Assembly: GCA_964458565.1 (NCBI GenBank) | Contig: CAYWJO010000011.1 | Span: 1 to 64,000, forward strand | Direction: 5' to 3' | DNA from: an uncultured archaeon | GTDB taxonomy: Archaea > Asgardarchaeota > Thorarchaeia > Thorarchaeales > Thorarchaeaceae | DNA: 64,000 nucleotides | Shown here: positions 1,006 through 38,177 of the stretch, piece by piece | Layout: every line of letters starts with the position of its first letter | Numbering within the stretch: position 1 is the first letter of the stretch | Notes under the pieces: generated by a model | Database searches by the model: none | Seen by the model: the letters and a program-made list of their open reading frames with translations, nothing else | What the model was told of the DNA's origin: nothing | Program-made: the position numbers and the translations under genes

Positions 1006-1112
1006 CCTGAACTCTCCGAACTGACGTTATACACAAACTATCCGAATAATCTTCTGGAAAGCTAGATTCTGATATAAGTGATTACTCAGCATCTGATTGT
1101 GAATACCTGTCA

Positions 1113-1913
1113 TCATGCCGCAAAGAGTAGCGTGAAGATGTTATCTAGAATCATCATTATGAAGAATCCAATCATGATGCCCCAAGTTGCCAGACGTGCG
1201 TTTCCTTCCGAATGACTTTCAGGCACCATCTCATCTCCAATTACAAAGATCATGGCTCCTGCAGCAAATGCCAATCCATAGGGAAGTAGCGAAGATGCGA
1301 AGGTCACAACAGAAACACCAAGGATGCCTCCAATAGGCTCTACAAGGCCTGTGAGTAATGCAAGCCCGCCCGCATATTTTCTTGAATAACCCTCTCGAAC
1401 CAAGGGTGCTGCTACTGCAAGACCCTCTGGTATATTCTGAAGTCCAATCGCTACAGCAACTGATATTCCCGTAAGCGGATTCTCTGTTCCAAAAGACACT
1501 CCTACTGCAAGACCCTCTGGGAAATTATGAATGGTGATGGCCAGAACAAGCAACCATACTCTAGCCATGCTTGATGATGGACCTTCTTGCCCTTTCTTGA
1601 AGTGCTCATGAGGAATATATCGATCAGAAACATGGACGAATAAGCCCCCCAATAGAAAACCAAACCCGACTACAGTGAATATTTGTATCACATCATTTGA
1701 TAGGAGTACAATGTCTAATGCTGGTACAAGAAGACTGAATGCGGATGCTGCTAACATAACTCCTGCTGCAAAACCTAGCATGAGATCAAGGGTTCTTCTA
1801 GTAAAATCCTTCTTCACAAAGATTGGGAGTGCACCAAGTCCTGTCGCACCGCCAGCAAGTAGACTAGCAAGAAGTCCTAAAATAATTGGGTCATCAGGAA
1901 GTACAAGCTGCAT
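1113..1913 (-). CDS. zupT: ZIP family (GufA/ZupT) divalent metal transporter
   Basis: Motifs LGFAAGVML, HNFPEGLAVG, QNIPEG, EMVPESH; probable start is ATG at 1913 (ORF track extends to 2000). Confidence 0.92.
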   Translation of the reverse strand: MQLVLPDDPIILGLLASLLAGGATGLGALPIFVKKDFTRRTLDLMLGFAAGVMLAASAFSLLVPALDIVLLSNDVIQIFTVVGFGFLLGGLFVHVSDRYIPHEHFKKGQEGPSSSMARVWLLVLAITIHNFPEGLAVGVSFGTENPLTGISVAVAIGLQNIPEGLAVAAPLVREGYSRKYAGGLALLTGLVEPIGGILGVSVVTFASSLLPYGLAFAAGAMIFVIGDEMVPESHSEGNARLATWGIMIGFFIMMILDNIFTLLFAA

Positions 1914-3695: not shown

Positions 3696-4340
3696 CTAAC
3701 CTCTGGGATGTTTTGGATCTCTCACTATGTTTCCCCTCGGTGATTCTTCACCAAATATCTCTGCTTGAAATGCCATGAACTCAGTCTTTGAGTCTTTCCA
3801 TGCATCTTCCGGTAACCATGCCTTGTTACAGGTGTGTTCTAAAAATTGCTGTACATTCCAACCCCAATCTACGGGGACCTGTGGTAATAATAATCCACGA
3901 TTTGCACCTCTAGTAGCTATTAATCCATCCCGTCCCACTTCTACAAGTGTAAGGAGTTGTACGGGGTCATCATATTCTATTTTCTTCGGAGGGGTCAATA
4001 CGCTCAGTTCCACGATTATTGAATCTAATTCCTTTACCGATATCGGAGCAAATCTTGGATCGTTTACTGCTGCATCAATTGCTGAGTCTATTGTGGCATC
4101 GATCAGTGATTGTGTAGGATAGGGTCTCCCAATACATCCACGTAGTGATACTTCCCTCGTTTTCAAAGAATTCAATGTCACGAATACACCTGAATTCTTT
4201 TTTAGATGGTCGGGAATGTTCTTGGGGGTTTCAATTCGTTTTTTCGTAGTGACATATTCATCTACAGTCTTTCTAGCGAGGCGAACTAGAAGATCTCCGT
4301 CCGATTTGGAATAAGTTTGAGGCAATTCTAAACAACTCAT
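3696..4340 (-). CDS. AMMECR1-domain protein
   Basis: GVFVTL, LRGCIG, DPRF, GLLLPQV motifs. Confidence 0.93.
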   Translation of the reverse strand: MSCLELPQTYSKSDGDLLVRLARKTVDEYVTTKKRIETPKNIPDHLKKNSGVFVTLNSLKTREVSLRGCIGRPYPTQSLIDATIDSAIDAAVNDPRFAPISVKELDSIIVELSVLTPPKKIEYDDPVQLLTLVEVGRDGLIATRGANRGLLLPQVPVDWGWNVQQFLEHTCNKAWLPEDAWKDSKTEFMAFQAEIFGEESPRGNIVRDPKHPRG

Positions 4341-12667: not shown

Positions 12668-13276
12668 ATGGCTGAATATCATCTCACAACACCACTCTCT
12701 GAAGAAGAAATTCGGAAACTAAAAGTTGGTGACATTGTCTATGTTACAGGCGAACATGTTTACACAGCTCGTGATGAAGCACATGAACGAGCCTTGCACA
12801 TGTACGAAAAGGGCGAAAAGCCTCCTGTAGACTTTGAAGGTAGTGTAATCTATCACGTTGGTCCTGTAGCTTGGCAAAAGGATGGTAAATGGCAAATCGT
12901 ATCCGCAGGACCCACGACAAGCATCAGGATGGAACTATTCGAAGATGAGTTTCTTCGCAAGTACAAAGCCAGAATCTTGGTAGGGAAGGGCGGAATGGGT
13001 GCTAAGACGCTAGCTGCTCTAAAAGAAGTTGGCGCTGTATACACAAGTTATACTGGTGGGTGCGGTGCTCTAGCTGCGAAAGGCCTCAAGGAAGTTCGTG
13101 CGTATGAGTGGTCTGATCTTGGTATGCCTGAGGCGCTCTGGGTCATCACCGCAGAAGAATTCGGTCCATTACTTGTTACAATGGACTCACATGGGGATAG
13201 TCTTCACGATGTGATTGATGAGCGAGTCAAGGCAAAGAAAGCAGCCATTTACGCTAAAATTGGGATTACTGAATAG
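12668..13276 (+). CDS. Fe-S fumarate hydratase, beta subunit
   Basis: TARDEAH, GPTTSIRM, GKGGM, LGMPEA; ATG at 12668 directly after the alpha stop. Confidence 0.92.
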   Translation: MAEYHLTTPLSEEEIRKLKVGDIVYVTGEHVYTARDEAHERALHMYEKGEKPPVDFEGSVIYHVGPVAWQKDGKWQIVSAGPTTSIRMELFEDEFLRKYKARILVGKGGMGAKTLAALKEVGAVYTSYTGGCGALAAKGLKEVRAYEWSDLGMPEALWVITAEEFGPLLVTMDSHGDSLHDVIDERVKAKKAAIYAKIGITE

Positions 13277-13284
13277 GCATATCG

Positions 13285-13310
13285 GAGCTTCATAGAGTTT
13301 CATGAAGCTC
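13285..13310 (+). terminator. Stem-loop after fumarase beta
   Basis: GAGCTTCAT-8nt-ATGAAGCTC followed by a pyrimidine tract. Confidence 0.6.
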
Positions 13311-13575
13311 TCCTTTCACTCTTTTAGAACTCTTGTTGATATTGTAACGAAATTGGTCGAAATTTCCCGGAAATCTTCTAAATTGAGATATCTAATTCCT
13401 TGTTTATGGCAAAAAGTCGTATTGGTTTATATCTATCTACCAGAAGAAACAATATCAGTCGTTTTTTCCCAATAGGGAGATTTTTGAGAGGGACTAAATC
13501 TCCATGAAAAGCCAATTTAGCAGATATTGCCATCATACATATCGAAATTATACTCAAAATGGAGGCACTTGAACA

Positions 13576-13764
13576 TTGGATTTCGAAACCGCGATAATTT
13601 TGGACATGATTCTCAGTTCTGAAATTCCGTATGAGGACAAAAACTCAGTAAGATTTGAGGTTGATGAGCAATATAACCACCCCCAATACATGAAGATATG
13701 GATTATTTCATTAAATGAAGTAAGTGAAGAAAAACAATCTGTTTTCATCGAACAATTTCATTGA
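13576..13764 (+). CDS. Small acidic hypothetical protein
   Basis: 62-aa ORF, TTG start with GGAGG at 13561; hairpin downstream at ~13807-13835. Confidence 0.45.
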   Translation: MDFETAIILDMILSSEIPYEDKNSVRFEVDEQYNHPQYMKIWIISLNEVSEEKQSVFIEQFH

Positions 13765-13921
13765 AAATATTGTTTTTCTTCCTTTTATAATCATAGAAAA
13801 ATTCGGTTTCCTTCACCCCCCCTCTTGAGGGGAAAGTAGCATTTTCTCTTAATTTATTATCAACACTAGGTTCCTAGAAGTTCAACCATCAATTCACTGA
13901 ACAATAAGTCAGTGAAGAACA

Positions 13922-14008
13922 ATGATGTACAGCGACGATCCCCTTAACGGCCCCGAGATCCCATGGAATAATGATGATCCACTCAATGGACCTGAACTTC
14001 CCTGGTGA
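13922..14008 (+). CDS. 28-aa micropeptide MMYSDDPLNGPEIPWNNDDPLNGPELPW with a duplicated core
   Basis: Translated directly from the sequence; the repeat copies differ mostly at synonymous positions; AT-rich box upstream and hairpin downstream. Confidence 0.75.
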   Translation: MMYSDDPLNGPEIPWNNDDPLNGPELPW

Positions 14009-14042
14009 ACTCAATCAAAGTTCGAGTGCCTTAGAAATCTAT

Positions 14043-14077
14043 GAGATACGGAAGGGTATAAAGTCCCTCTGTATCTC
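14043..14077 (+). terminator. Stem-loop after the micropeptide gene
   Basis: GAGATACGGAAGGG-8nt-CCCTCTGTATCTC, followed by a T-rich tract. Confidence 0.6.
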
Positions 14078-14370
14078 TAGCAATTTCTTTTTTAATTCCA
14101 ATTCCAACCATTTTAAGCAGTTTATCTGCTCCCCTCATTGTTTTGATTTATTGATTACTATCCAAATAGGGGAATCATTCCATAAATTGCTATAAAAATT
14201 ATTACAAGTACAAATAGGAATAATAGGATGTTCCCAGTATCCATTCTTATGCACCCCGGCTGAAATTAAATCACTGAACTTTCCTTATTATAATTAGGTG
14301 TGCCAATAATATTAGGCATTTCTGACGTAACATTTTGGCGCGAAATGAAGAAATGCGCAATCGAGATAAC

Positions 14371-14859
14371 TTACTCCTCAAATCTATCATCCGCAATATA
14401 GCGCTCATCATCAGATGACATTTCTTTAATCCACCCATCAACAACGCTCTTTCTATCATCAAATTTTGAGATATAGGGTTTGATATCAAGAAGCGGAGTG
14501 CCATTCAACATATCAGCACCTCTAAACACTATAATATGTCTGCCAACTTCAATAAATTCCACAATCGAAATACCAATTGGATTGGGACGAGAAGGAACCC
14601 TTGTAGCAAATACACCATGCTGTCTATCATCAAGATATGGCGTGACCAACAATTCAGGTTTTTTTGCTCTATCAAACCAATAAATCAAATACCCATGAGA
14701 AAAGAGTTCCAAAGACTTGAGACCTGCTGAATATTCTGGATTGATAATCGCCCGTCCAACGCTCTGCGAATATATTGGTTGAATAGGCGTGCTTTCGCTT
14801 GACTCGTACTCTGTTTCGATAACTCCAATGGGAACAACTCGATATTCTGAAGATGACAT
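14371..14859 (-). CDS. tsaA: tRNA m6t6A37 methyltransferase TrmO/TsaA
   Basis: GVFATRVPSRPNPIG, GTPLLDIKPY. Confidence 0.93.
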   Translation of the reverse strand: MSSSEYRVVPIGVIETEYESSESTPIQPIYSQSVGRAIINPEYSAGLKSLELFSHGYLIYWFDRAKKPELLVTPYLDDRQHGVFATRVPSRPNPIGISIVEFIEVGRHIIVFRGADMLNGTPLLDIKPYISKFDDRKSVVDGWIKEMSSDDERYIADDRFEE

Positions 14860-14992
14860 ATATCCTTATTTCTCTCACTTCACTATAACGATTTTGTTCT
14901 AATAGAAAACATACCCTCAACAGTAAGCTATAAACGTTGAAACTTGACCGCCGAGTCCGTACAAGACAGAGCTCTCTATTGGAGGACTATCA

Positions 14993-33888: not shown

Positions 33889-34260
33889 TTACTTAATCAT
33901 TGAAACTAAGGCACGTCTTAATGCTATTCTGAGGAGCCCCATTGACTCACGGGCACCTTCGCCTGCCATCGCAGCAAGTACCAGTTTCACATCCCCTAGA
34001 ATGATTGTGAATCCTTTTTCTGATGCTATACTGACTTCTTTTAGACCGCCCTTATCGAGATTAATAGCAAGCTGAGAGGAATTTCCTGCAATCTTGACAA
34101 CAAGTCCCGCGACATCCTCGTGTCTTATTCCGCCACTCAAAGTATGACCAAAGATGACGCCTCCTTTTATATCGCTAACAATTATTCCTTCCAAATCCGG
34201 GTTGGCTGCCATGGTTTCTGCTACAATTTGCTCAATCTTTTCTTTCTTGACCATTGACAT
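33889..34260 (-). CDS. Roadblock/LC7 domain protein
   Basis: LEGIIVSDIKG, helix, GGLKEVSI, MGLLRIAL. Confidence 0.8.
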   Translation of the reverse strand: MSMVKKEKIEQIVAETMAANPDLEGIIVSDIKGGVIFGHTLSGGIRHEDVAGLVVKIAGNSSQLAINLDKGGLKEVSIASEKGFTIILGDVKLVLAAMAGEGARESMGLLRIALRRALVSMIK

Positions 34261-34416
34261 ATTCTCCTAAGCGGCTTATTACTAGCATAGATGTGACTCT
34301 TATGTACTTTATAACTTCTGTGTTGCTATTTGTATTTTAGGACCACTCATACTTGTTGTCCCAAAGTTTAATATCGTTCACGGTAAGAAACCGCCAAATC
34401 TTTTGGAGATAAATTA

Positions 34417-36036
34417 ATGCCCATGCTCAAAACTAGCTCTGAGGCTTTTCCCTCATCCAGAGATATGATGAAGGACATTCCTTATGTCCTACGTGTTCGG
34501 TTTGGAGAACTAGCCGATGATACAACTAAGATTGTGGGAAAGCCTATCGCCTGTCACAAATGTAATGGATTCCTTTTGAGTGTTGAACAAATTAAGGAAG
34601 ACCCAAAAGTAGGCAGGCATTTCATTTGTCCCTTCTGTAGCACATTAAATGTTATTGAGGGAGAGATTGTATTCGCAGGATCGGATTCCGATTTTGAACT
34701 TGAACCACCCACGGTGACTGACACAACAACAGATGTTGTCACATCTGGTGGTAAATCATTCTTGGCACTCATTGATGTGTCAGGGTCAATGTCAGGTGGC
34801 AATCTTGCAGCTGTGAAACGTAGTCTGACGACTTCGATAGAGAGTCTCGCTGCTAATTCACCAGACACCCTCTTCGGACTAATAGAGTTCGAGAGTTCAG
34901 TTTTACTCAGGAATTTAGAAAATGGTGCACCACTTGAATTACCACAGGACACTTTTGCGAATCTTGATAGTATCATGGATGCAACAAAGAAGATGCTTGA
35001 CAAGGTGAAGCTTATACCTGTTGGTAAGAACTCTGATTCGATTAAGAAGCATGTTCAAGCATTACGCGACCAAGGAGGTACTGCTCTTGGTCCCGCTGTG
35101 GCTATGGCGTATGTTATTGCTAAACATCGTAGTGTTGGACGTGTAGTACTTCTTACTGACGGACTAGCAAATGAGGGAATTGGCGCCTTAGAGGGATATC
35201 AAGTCACTCCCCCCACTCAATATTATGAGGGCTTGGGGCAACAATTCCGAGAACTCGGCACTTCTCTTGATGTTGTAGGAATTGCTTCAGGTGCAGGGAT
35301 GGAACTAAAGACTCTTGGTCTCCTGCCCGAGGCTACTGGTGGTCAGATGTACTATGTAACTCCAAACGAGCTTGATAGAAGTATATCCGAACTTGCAGGA
35401 GCTTCTCTCTTAGGTCGTGACGTTGAGGTTCGGCTTATCACTCCTCCTGGAGTCAGGGTCAAGGATGCATCTGGTGTATCCAGAGCAGTTGTTGATGAGC
35501 TAACCAAGAAGCAAGATAGTAAAATCGGTGTTGTTGGAAACCGCCATGAACTTTACTTCGAAGTAGAACCTAAATCTGAGATAAAGGAGGAAGAAGTGCC
35601 TATTCAGGTACAAGTTTCTTATACGGATGAAGATGGCTCTCGTCGCGTTAGGGCTCTAACAACAAAGCTCAAGGTTGCAAGGAATGAGGAGGAGGTCCTA
35701 AAAACCCTTGATCCTACGGTTGGCGCTGTCTTTGTCACTCAGAAAGCAGGTGAGGAAGCATTTCGTGGAGATCGTGAGAAGGGTAAGAAGCGAATCGCAA
35801 CATTTCGATCAGCTCTGAAGAGTAAAGCTGAGGGTGCTTCCGGTGGGGCAAGAGCACGATTTGAGAAAGCAGATGATGCACTTGAATCTGAGGAAGAGGA
35901 ACTTGAGATGCAGATGAAGGAGATGGAAGAAGCACCTTCTGCTGCGCCCTCTGCTGCAGCTGACATGGTTTCAACGCAAAATCTTCGACAGATGAAGAGA
36001 AGCTCAAAAGACCTGTTCGAAGACGAAGAAGAGTAA
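34417..36036 (+). CDS. Sec23/Sec24-type Zn finger, vWA and beta-sandwich protein
   Basis: PIACHKCNGFL...FICPFCSTLN; MIDAS DVSGS, GGTALGPA, LLTDGLAN; QVQVSYTDEDGSRRVR. Confidence 0.8.
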   Translation: MPMLKTSSEAFPSSRDMMKDIPYVLRVRFGELADDTTKIVGKPIACHKCNGFLLSVEQIKEDPKVGRHFICPFCSTLNVIEGEIVFAGSDSDFELEPPTVTDTTTDVVTSGGKSFLALIDVSGSMSGGNLAAVKRSLTTSIESLAANSPDTLFGLIEFESSVLLRNLENGAPLELPQDTFANLDSIMDATKKMLDKVKLIPVGKNSDSIKKHVQALRDQGGTALGPAVAMAYVIAKHRSVGRVVLLTDGLANEGIGALEGYQVTPPTQYYEGLGQQFRELGTSLDVVGIASGAGMELKTLGLLPEATGGQMYYVTPNELDRSISELAGASLLGRDVEVRLITPPGVRVKDASGVSRAVVDELTKKQDSKIGVVGNRHELYFEVEPKSEIKEEEVPIQVQVSYTDEDGSRRVRALTTKLKVARNEEEVLKTLDPTVGAVFVTQKAGEEAFRGDREKGKKRIATFRSALKSKAEGASGGARARFEKADDALESEEEELEMQMKEMEEAPSAAPSAAADMVSTQNLRQMKRSSKDLFEDEEE

Positions 36037-36046
36037 TTATGCAATC

Positions 36047-36068
36047 GTGACGTCAATTTTGGCGTCAC
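36047..36068 (+). terminator. Stem-loop after the vWA gene
   Basis: GTGACGTCAA...TTGGCGTCAC followed by a T7 run. Confidence 0.55.
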
Positions 36069-36221
36069 TTCCTATTTTTTTCCCAATTTCGCGTAATACA
36101 AAGCTAATAAATGCGCAAAATATACTCTCTTGGCTAGGAATATTAGCACAATTCCTAAATACCCAGACGCGGCGTAAGAATTACGAAGCGTTAACAATTG
36201 ACAGCAGCGGAGATTCGGTAA

Positions 36222-36515
36222 TTGATAAGTCAAGACAAACTCCAGGAAATCCTCAATAGGCTTAAAGCACAAGAAGGTGTTCGTGGAGTAGTAGTAACCA
36301 CAATGGAGGGGTTACCCCTCAGTAGTGATCTTGACGCAGACACTACCGAGAATGTTGCAGCCATCATAACCTCGCTTGTGGGAAAGGCACTAGATGCAGT
36401 AAAAGAACTTAAGGAGGGTAATCTCTCCTTTCTGACACTTGATACATCAAAGGGCCAAATAAATATCGCACCGGAACCAAAAGAGGGCCTAATATTAGTG
36501 GTCCTGAAGATATAA
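36222..36515 (+). CDS. Roadblock/LC7 domain protein (dynein-light-chain roadblock-like)
   Basis: [26 protein letters not shown]...LSFLTL...LILVVLK. Confidence 0.85.
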
Positions 36516-36536
36516 TGATGAAATGGAGTTAGAAAA

Positions 36537-37004
36537 ATGAGCGATCCGAAAGCCTTCGATAAGATTCTCACCGATATCATAAGACAAGATAAGGGAATCA
36601 AAAAAATCATACTAACAGATAAGACTGGTCTCACCATTGCTAATGTAAGCAAATTGTCATACTATCCAGTAGATGTCGACTCCATAGGTGCAATTGCAAG
36701 CGCTGTGTTCTGTGCAAGTGAGGAACAAGGTAAGAACCTGCAGATTGGTGAACTTGAGATAGTCACATCCGAATTCTCTGAAGGCAAGATTTTTGCATCC
36801 GCTTGTGGAAAAGGTGTTCTTTGTGTTGTGTCAGAGGCTGAGGTAAATATCGGTCTAATTCGTTTGCTCATGAAGAAACAAGGCTTGACTCTTGCACAGG
36901 AGCTAGACAAGTTCCTTACTGTAGATTCCTCTGGTCCGGGTAAGGACAAAGAACTTGATGAGGAAGACTTACGCTCTGCTCTTGCTGAACTAGAGAAAGT
37001 ATAA
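36537..37004 (+). CDS. Roadblock/LC7 protein with C-terminal extension (MglB-like)
   Basis: IILTDKTGLTI, GAIASAVF, VNIGLIRL, acidic C-terminal helix. Confidence 0.85.
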   Translation: MSDPKAFDKILTDIIRQDKGIKKIILTDKTGLTIANVSKLSYYPVDVDSIGAIASAVFCASEEQGKNLQIGELEIVTSEFSEGKIFASACGKGVLCVVSEAEVNIGLIRLLMKKQGLTLAQELDKFLTVDSSGPGKDKELDEEDLRSALAELEKV

Positions 37005-37232
37005 TCTCTGTTAGCGCAAATACTCGTAACTCCAGAAGTCCCGTGCCACAAAGGCTTTTATTAGGCTGGACTGTTAGAACATCCAGCCCTGAAACTAGAC
37101 TTCATGTTCAGAGAGCTAACCCATCAACATTGACCTCGTCAATCAAAATATGCAGTGAATCAATGAGGTGTAAAAAATTAGGAAGGACCTCTCATTAACA
37201 CTCACCAAAACCCGAATTAGTGGAGGCTTTTT

Positions 37233-37796
37233 ATGAGAAAAGACTTAGCTGGCCGCATACATCTTAAGCTTGTCTTCTATGGTCCATCACTAGGAGGCAA
37301 AACAACTGCATTAAGATGGTTGTACGGTAAAGTCGAAGGCCTGCAGAAAGGTGAGTTCACTGCTATCGAGGATGAAACGAATCGGACCTTATTCTTCGAC
37401 TATGTACCAATGAGTGCAGGTGGTCGAGTGCTGTTTGATGTGTTTACTGTTGCAGGCCAGAAGCGACATAGACATCAAAGAAAGGTTGTTCTTCAAGGCA
37501 CAGATGGAATCCTATTTGTCGCAGACTCTTCCCCCGATCAACGTGAAGAGAACACAGAAAGCTTTGAGGAGCTCAAGTTATTTCTCGGAGATGCGTTGGG
37601 TCGTGAAATCCCAATAGTTGTTATGTTGAACAAGCGTGACCTACCAAACAGGATGTCACGAGACGAAATGCTTGACCTGCTCGGTCTAGGTGGGAACGTA
37701 CCTATATATGAGACAATAGCTGTCCAAGGAGTAGGTGTAAAACGAGCTTTCCAGTCGATAGCGCGAGAAGTGATATTGAAACGAATGTACAAGTAG
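37233..37796 (+). CDS. MglA-like small GTPase
   Basis: G1 GPSLGGKTT, RTLFFD, TVAGQ, DGILFVADS, G4 NKRD. Confidence 0.9.
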   Translation: MRKDLAGRIHLKLVFYGPSLGGKTTALRWLYGKVEGLQKGEFTAIEDETNRTLFFDYVPMSAGGRVLFDVFTVAGQKRHRHQRKVVLQGTDGILFVADSSPDQREENTESFEELKLFLGDALGREIPIVVMLNKRDLPNRMSRDEMLDLLGLGGNVPIYETIAVQGVGVKRAFQSIAREVILKRMYK

Positions 37797-37805
37797 GGTG
37801 AGACC

Positions 37806-38177
37806 ATGGCAGAAACACGTGGAGATACTCTTGAAGGTGTATTGAATGAGTTACAGGGTAGTATACCCGAGATTGAGGCATGTGCCATTGTGAGTGTTGA
37901 GGGTCTACCAATTGTGTCGGCTCTACCAGCTGATGTTGATGAGGCTAAAGTCGCTGCTATGACTGCTGCTATGTTAACCCTCGGCGAAAAAGCGGCGATG
38001 GAACTTGGAAAGGGTAATCTTGAACAGGTCAATGTCAAAGGTGTTGATGGGTGGCTACTTGTCGTAGCAGCTGGTATGAATGCATGTCTTACTGTATCAA
38101 CCACTGCTAATGCCAAATTAGGGCTAATCTTTCTTGACATGAAACGTGCTGCTGATAAGATTGCAAAGATGATTTAG
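37806..38177 (+). CDS. Roadblock/LC7 (MglB-like) protein
   Basis: IVSVEGLPI, VAAMTAAMLTLGE, GNLEQV, KLGLIFLDM. Confidence 0.9.
   Translation: MAETRGDTLEGVLNELQGSIPEIEACAIVSVEGLPIVSALPADVDEAKVAAMTAAMLTLGEKAAMELGKGNLEQVNVKGVDGWLLVVAAGMNACLTVSTTANAKLGLIFLDMKRAADKIAKMI

Follow-up and report, generated by a model that had tools for sequence, protein, structure and literature searches.

A tandem-core micropeptide gene in a Thorarchaeota genome and its fast-evolving family of tiny proline-rich genes, found mostly beside the gene of one orphan protein

Background

Circuits formed by a small peptide and a cytosolic receptor are well known in Bacillota and their phages. In the RRNPP and Rgg/SHP systems (Phr/Rap, PapR/PlcR and AimP/AimR), a cytosolic receptor or regulator is encoded next to a very short peptide gene, the peptide has its active part at the C-terminal end, and it diversifies fast between lineages. 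The genes described here are like them in these respects, but their partner is predicted to be Lrp/AsnC-like and not a TPR protein, the Thorarchaeota peptides lack a signal sequence and have neither export nor import genes near them, the cores are in tandem and the host is an archaeon. We know of no peptide and cytosolic-receptor circuit described in Archaea.

The known ligands of the Lrp/AsnC regulators (FFRP) and of NirDL/AhbAB are free amino acids or siroheme, NirDL being a siroheme decarboxylase made of two fused Lrp/AsnC-like modules. To our knowledge, Lrp/AsnC-type proteins sense free amino acids and not gene-encoded peptides. The partner protein studied here matches these proteins at fold level (residues 322-656 and 485-635), but it has no sequence-level family match and carries an extra N-terminal region of about 320 residues. 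A third comparison is offered by multi-core precursors such as those of the cyanobactins, the dikaritins and yeast alpha-factor, with which the present family shares invariant cores, variable linkers and a core number varying among relatives, but here there is no leader or signal, and neither recognition sequences nor a processing enzyme are found nearby.

Genes of this kind fall below the length that gene callers usually require. The one that is the subject of this report lies in a stretch of 64,000 nt from an uncultured archaeon, which as a whole is called the window, and was noticed in a first-pass annotation as a 28-aa micropeptide under protein-level selection.

Results

Structure of the micropeptide gene

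The ORF with two DDPLNGPE[I/L]PW cores proposed by the first-pass annotation was found at 13922-14008 with the sequence it had given. The features of the locus, in window positions, are the following.

13853-13860, forward strand: AT-rich TTTATTAT, a possible TATA box judged from its sequence
13912-13916, forward strand: GTGAA, a Shine-Dalgarno-like element 5 nt ahead of the ATG, with the counterpart GGTGAA at the paralog on contig C12
13922-14008, forward strand: micropeptide coding sequence, 28 codons and a TGA stop, reading MMYS, core 1, NN, core 2
13934-13966, forward strand: core 1, DDPLNGPEIPW
13973-14005, forward strand: core 2, DDPLNGPELPW, its Trp being the C-terminus of the peptide
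14043-14077, forward strand: stable 3' stem-loop with arms at 14043-14055 and 14065-14077
14084-14093, forward strand: oligo-T tract TTTCTTTTTT, by its sequence a likely archaeal termination signal
14371-14859, reverse strand: TrmO_N gene

An in-frame TGA at 13913-13915 lies directly 5' of the ORF, which is not the tail of a longer one, and both the AT-rich box and the downstream hairpin that had been pointed out earlier are present. The 3' region of this copy (95 nt) folds at -30 kcal/mol (z = -5.6); a strict bacterial-type terminator scan flagged neither this hairpin site nor that of the C12 copy, and no significant RNA family was detected by Rfam over 13000-14600. The assembly is considered sound at this point because the locus is found at 100% identity in three public assemblies; the locus is present in SRR9710542, SRR9700687 and SRR8557365. 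The ORF is best explained as an independently transcribed gene.

The encoded peptide of 28 residues is acidic (no Lys or Arg), proline-rich and predicted to be disordered, and structure prediction, a check suggested in the first-pass annotation, modelled it alone as coil. Only the four residues MMYS precede core 1, nothing follows core 2, and the 28 residues include nothing that looks like a hydrophobic signal segment.

Selection on the coding sequence

Between the two 33-nt cores there are 10 nucleotide differences, 9 of which are at third codon positions. Eight codon pairs differ synonymously, exactly as had been listed, and the ninth differing codon, ATC/CTT, corresponds to the Ile/Leu exchange. 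When the 10 differences were placed randomly, one amino-acid change at most was obtained in 5e-5 of the trials, and the sense-frame dN/dS between the cores was 0.03. The back-translated core pattern, expected 0.00 times in shuffles of the window, occurs twice, and when 29,522 small ATG-ORFs of the genome were screened for repeats, the window ORF and its C12 paralog alone had peptide repeats that are almost perfect while their nucleotide identity is low.

This paralog (G000:C12:5163-5246) was the only further copy obtained in a six-frame scan of the 3.73-Mb genome. It has 27 codons and keeps the two-core layout, and what it has in common with the window copy is only the coding stretch and the GTGAA element before the ATG, the flanks being unalignable. 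Of the 16 nucleotide differences between the two copies, 12 fall at third positions, with dS saturated, dN of 0.08 and dN/dS of 0.11. The sense frame had the lowest dN/dS among the six frames and was the only one with a conserved start and stop. An antisense gene was considered and rejected: the -1 frame is open, but its dN/dS values were 0.21 and 0.16 and its ends are unrelated between the two copies. At the matching place downstream of the paralog there is a 3' stem-loop (z = -7.4) that is non-homologous to the one in the window, with a TTCTTTTTT tract at a similar distance. No promoter or operator motif common to the two copies was found beyond chance, and no protein family in the genome ends in E[IL]PW.

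The earlier claim of a translated repeat under purifying selection was thus borne out both by the random placement and by the comparison with the paralog. The 28-codon ORF is a real gene under purifying selection, and the window copy is a stand-alone paralog, one of two copies in this Thorarchaeota genome. The genome is placed in Thorarchaeota by the names that its relatives' proteins carry.

Searches for homologs and the syntenic family

No convincing match came from direct searches with the peptide and with profiles, whether in 60 relatives or in 400 phylum genomes. The contig collections (genome, metagenome and viral), searched by back-translated patterns, returned single matches that were off-frame chance, the 1.84 billion protein representatives contributed no convincing match but only unrelated repeat proteins summing weak scores, and among PDB sequences no chain matches the peptide. 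A non-functional ORF, arisen by chance or left over from a repeat protein, would agree with the lack of matches in the 400 phylum genomes, the contig collections and the protein representatives; a fragment of a decayed repeat protein was also one of the outcomes that, according to the first-pass annotation, would undo its proposal. Against this stand the two paralogs, the strong purifying selection in the sense frame, the start, stop and Shine-Dalgarno-like element that have been kept, and the syntenic family members in other genera described below; besides, the repeat proteins that were matched are unrelated proteins. We find this explanation hardly credible, and it is already close to refuted. 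Another such outcome, a lack of homologs, would have been accepted wrongly from the sequence searches, which miss the true family because the cores diverge fast. Synteny revealed a family with variable core number tied to an Lrp/AsnC-like protein, which is what the motif search proposed at first did not reach.

The gene that links this family was found next to the paralog:

G000:C12:2987-4960: partner gene, encoding a 657-aa orphan protein

It ends 203 nt upstream of the C12 micropeptide copy, and homologs of its product are present in 36/40 genomes of the family at 25-30% identity. Among the first 11 relatives' loci, 6 have, ahead of the partner gene and in its orientation, an EP[W/F]-stop micro-ORF at a distance of about 170-230 nt. 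With expected counts taken from the six-frame background of the present genome, the 11 upstream windows held six EP[WF]-stop occurrences against 0.018 expected and five PEP[W/F]-stop occurrences against 0.0006 expected. In total, 22/41 partner loci have a linked candidate micropeptide, the remainder (about half) having none under the filters used.

The linked members have from 1 to 5 or more cores and end in P-W or P-F, and in other genomes most of them have (G)GTGA 5-9 nt before the ATG. The sole feature conserved across genera is the C-terminal aromatic residue (...P-[WF]-stop). An M-x-Y-N-D-P start and a P-[WF] end are common to the present peptide and to the members of genomes G008, G011 and G032, close relatives that also have the downstream placement in common. 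The G008 member is found just 3' of the partner gene in the same orientation, as the C12 copy is; G032 has one copy on either side of the partner gene, its member being composed of two DPSDPLTEPF cores, and G030 has one copy. The peptides of the present genome end in I/L-P-W, the usual end in the family being E-P-W/F.

The window copy has the marks by which the family was defined, that is, at most 60 codons, the (G)GTGA element, acidic Pro-rich cores and P-W or P-F before the stop, but it lies away from the partner gene, for which a distance of up to about 500 nt was used; the paralog, at 203 nt, is adjacent. It differs from the other Thorarchaeota members in being unlinked, and the linked copy of this genome is downstream of the partner and not upstream. 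Because the single partner gene of this genome is on C12, any action of the window copy would have to be in trans. A parallel case for an unlinked copy was found in G004, which has a linked copy and a second one on another contig with no partner gene near it; between these two there are 32 nucleotide differences (25 in third positions), with identical cores and random flanks.

We conclude that the window peptide belongs to a fast-evolving family of tiny Pro-rich genes, mostly adjoining one orphan protein of about 660 aa. No published description of the peptide or of the P-W/F-ended family was found in a full-text literature search, and we regard the family as undescribed.

The arrangement in most relatives, with the micro-ORF 130-230 nt ahead of the Lrp-like gene and in its orientation, and only the C-terminal ...P-[WF]-stop conserved across genera, could also correspond to a cis-acting leader peptide or uORF, whose translation would control the downstream gene, for example through a pause of the ribosome at the Pro-rich end or the last Trp/Phe codon. 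We consider this very improbable, because the window copy is followed by a hairpin, a T-tract and a convergent gene, with no same-strand gene before them, and because the C12, G008, G011 and G355 peptides are downstream of, or convergent to, the partner gene. Tandem duplication of a whole core and strict conservation of ten core residues would likewise be unexpected in a leader.

Sequence resemblance suggested one more candidate function. The conserved stretch of Sec31 reads G-P-Q-N-G-W-N (PMC2653190) and a role of the WN motif in Sec31 has been described (PMC7594496). The peptide contains G-P-E-I-P-W-N, the string G-P-[QE]-x-x-W-N is unique in the 7.5 M six-frame residues of the genome, and a protein with Sec23_trunk and Sec23_BS domains is present, so that a mimic of the Sec31 'active fragment', which has a conserved Trp-Asn in a disordered Pro-rich stretch contacting Sec23-Sar1, acting on the Sec23/24-like protein and the small GTPase at 34.4-37.8 kb of the window might be imagined. 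The W-N junction is kept, however, in no other family member and the resemblance is on that account taken as a coincidence; the PDB, as noted, holds no chain matching the peptide, conservation across the family is seen for the Sec24-like protein but not for the peptide sequence, and the comparison was made post hoc. Its probability seems to us negligible. As a separate observation on that region, window 33889-38177 was compared with L091 8330-10952 of a relative, where the GTPase is 91% identical and the roadblock-GTPase-roadblock group is kept; at that place the relative has no called Sec23/24-like gene, and SMC/ScpAB genes lie upstream instead.

Several other ORFs came to light in these comparisons. 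A multi-core family member with GLRPYSPGPEPF units was found in genome G027 (L062, about 1040-1302, forward strand), broken by a run of N. The assembly seems to have been interrupted by the tandem cores, and MAGs may therefore show fewer cores than there are. In the present genome, a 12-mer ending in PEPLPW (L129, about 3929-3967, forward strand; G000:C26:14929 onward) fits the family pattern, has a strong GGAG Shine-Dalgarno element and sits between two wHTH proteins and an MFS transporter, and a 15-mer ending in PEWPW (G000:C66, about 11398, reverse strand), near Csa1/CARF genes, also fits it.

The partner protein

Neither the 657-aa protein alone nor its family gave any sequence match in Pfam, NCBIfam or the PDB, and no Pfam wHTH or AsnC match was obtained. 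A model built from a 12-sequence alignment reached a pLDDT of 76 and a pTM of 0.68. Foldseek matched it to NirDL with E = 7e-6, and the alignment covered 266 residues within model residues 322-656 (VIA Z = 11.0). Residues 485-635 match four whole Lrp/AsnC regulators, some of them amino-acid-bound entries, with Z about 6 and 133-142 residues aligned, and the N-terminal region of some 320 residues is without an assigned fold. According to the model, the C-terminal half is predicted to fold as two Lrp/AsnC-like modules, each with a winged helix and a RAM ligand-binding domain (beta-alpha-beta-beta-alpha-beta), the resemblance being at fold level only. A regulatory role is not established by these matches, because the best structural match, NirDL, is an enzyme and Pfam recognises neither a wHTH nor an AsnC domain.

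The prediction of a complex between the partner and the peptide gave a score of 0.25 with the mark at 0.32, which is no verdict either way. No operator-like motif common to the two peptide promoters and the partner promoter was found above shuffled controls.

Neighbourhood of the window copy

At 13277-14992 of the window, the interval between FumB and SdhA measures 1.7 kb and holds the micropeptide gene and the reverse-strand TrmO_N gene. FumB and SdhA are adjacent in nearly all genomes of the family, with a spacer of 130-830 nt. No ORF cognate to the micropeptide was found between FumB and SdhA of relatives, and no homolog of it in the region 3' of their TrmO orthologs.

This location raises the question of a bivalent microprotein with short linear motifs, acting whole inside the cell on another oligomeric target, an enzyme for instance, as archaeal small proteins are known to do, in which case the linkage of the family to the Lrp-like gene would reflect co-regulation and not binding. 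The peptide is disordered and acidic, with tandem motifs and its own transcription unit, and the window copy is placed among TCA-cycle genes, with fumarate hydratase on one side and SdhA on the other, far away from the Lrp-like gene. In addition, archaea translate many small ORFs that lack annotation (PMC11456600). On the other side, no candidate target is indicated by any of the data and the two copies have no common neighbour, the only consistent association being the adjacency to one protein family. On balance we hold such a function to be unlikely, while giving it some weight.

Three further small ORFs were noted around this interval and its counterparts. At 13576-13764 (forward strand), just upstream of the micropeptide gene, there is a 62-codon ORF, followed by an 18-nt inverted repeat (13726-13781); it matches only itself among 5.8 billion proteins. 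Convergent with the micropeptide gene, at 14158-14244 (reverse strand), lies a strongly hydrophobic micro-ORF of 28 codons with one predicted membrane helix and GGGGTG before its ATG, and no equivalent of it was found 3' of the TrmO orthologs of relatives. Genome G020 has, between an MBL-fold gene and its TrmO ortholog, a 34-codon ORF (L081 1992-2096, reverse strand) with acidic runs punctuated by Trp and a Trp at its end; its DNA is low-complexity and GAT-rich, and it is non-homologous to the present peptide.

Processing enzymes

The first-pass annotation had placed a RiPP precursor among its possible readings while observing that no maturase is adjacent. This observation is correct, and no maturase, protease or transporter lies close to either copy. 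A multi-core precursor modified by enzymes encoded elsewhere, through a Trp cross-link or macrocyclisation after Pro, could account for invariant cores with varying linkers and for the varying number of cores across the family, and the genome does encode one prolyl oligopeptidase and one RRE-radical SAM-SPASM protein. However, a leader would be limited to four residues and there is no follower. The RRE-radical SAM-SPASM enzyme, the only one of the genome, is AhbD/NirJ-like and is kept at 71-79% identity in 27/40 relatives whatever their peptide, none of these being matched by the peptide searches, and it adjoins a protein with a Cys/His-repeat tail that is likely to be its own substrate. No YcaO was found in the genome. 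Modification in trans therefore appears quite improbable to us, and the RiPP part of the earlier interpretation did not hold.

The pair just mentioned is of interest in its own right. The 725-aa protein (L098 3694-5871, reverse strand; G000:C3:61693-63870) ends in a C-terminal run of CHSAC-type Cys/His repeats, and the PqqD(RRE)-radical SAM-SPASM enzyme (L098 6447-7874, forward strand; G000:C3:64446-65873) is divergent to it; the two are possibly an enzyme and its substrate.

Discussion

Among the interpretations given in the first-pass annotation, the results agree best with action in trans as a signalling-peptide precursor or a short-linear-motif peptide. The form of it that we favour, tentatively and at somewhat less than even chances, is that the peptide acts in trans as a ligand of the Lrp/AsnC-like partner, with its C-terminal aromatic residue in a RAM pocket, switching the activity of the partner. 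Binding to the partner would be by the entire peptide or by pieces released by cleavage behind each aromatic residue; the amino-acid pocket of the RAM modules would take up the C-terminal aromatic residue with its free carboxylate; and this occupancy would switch the partner. The role of the window copy would be to provide this ligand in trans as well, under a second promoter with its own control. We infer the binding, the binding pocket, the processing and the regulatory outcome from the gene context and the predicted fold, and the genomic linkage of the family to the partner is not proof of binding.

Cores have been amplified independently in several lineages, which suggests either a cleavage that releases several ligands or avidity to an oligomeric receptor. 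Tyr3 of the peptide occupies the position of a preceding core's Trp, which is consistent with cleavage after each aromatic residue. A more general proposal, which we regard as doubtful, is that in Thorarchaeota tandem-core precursors are cut after each Trp or Phe, giving identical ligands of about 11-13 residues for a tandem Lrp/AsnC-like receptor, with unlinked genes feeding the same receptor. The C-terminal aromatic carboxylate of each released peptide would then fit the RAM pocket, and the lineage-specific core sequences would make private peptide-receptor pairs.

Only synteny and codon-level selection tests reveal tiny genes that diverge this fast. If the ligand reading is true, the system would be an archaeal counterpart of bacterial peptide signalling. 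A conserved pairing of micropeptide and Lrp-like protein across this Asgard family would add a new class of ligand to the regulator superfamily, and would give a candidate signalling system for the prokaryotes most closely related to eukaryotes.
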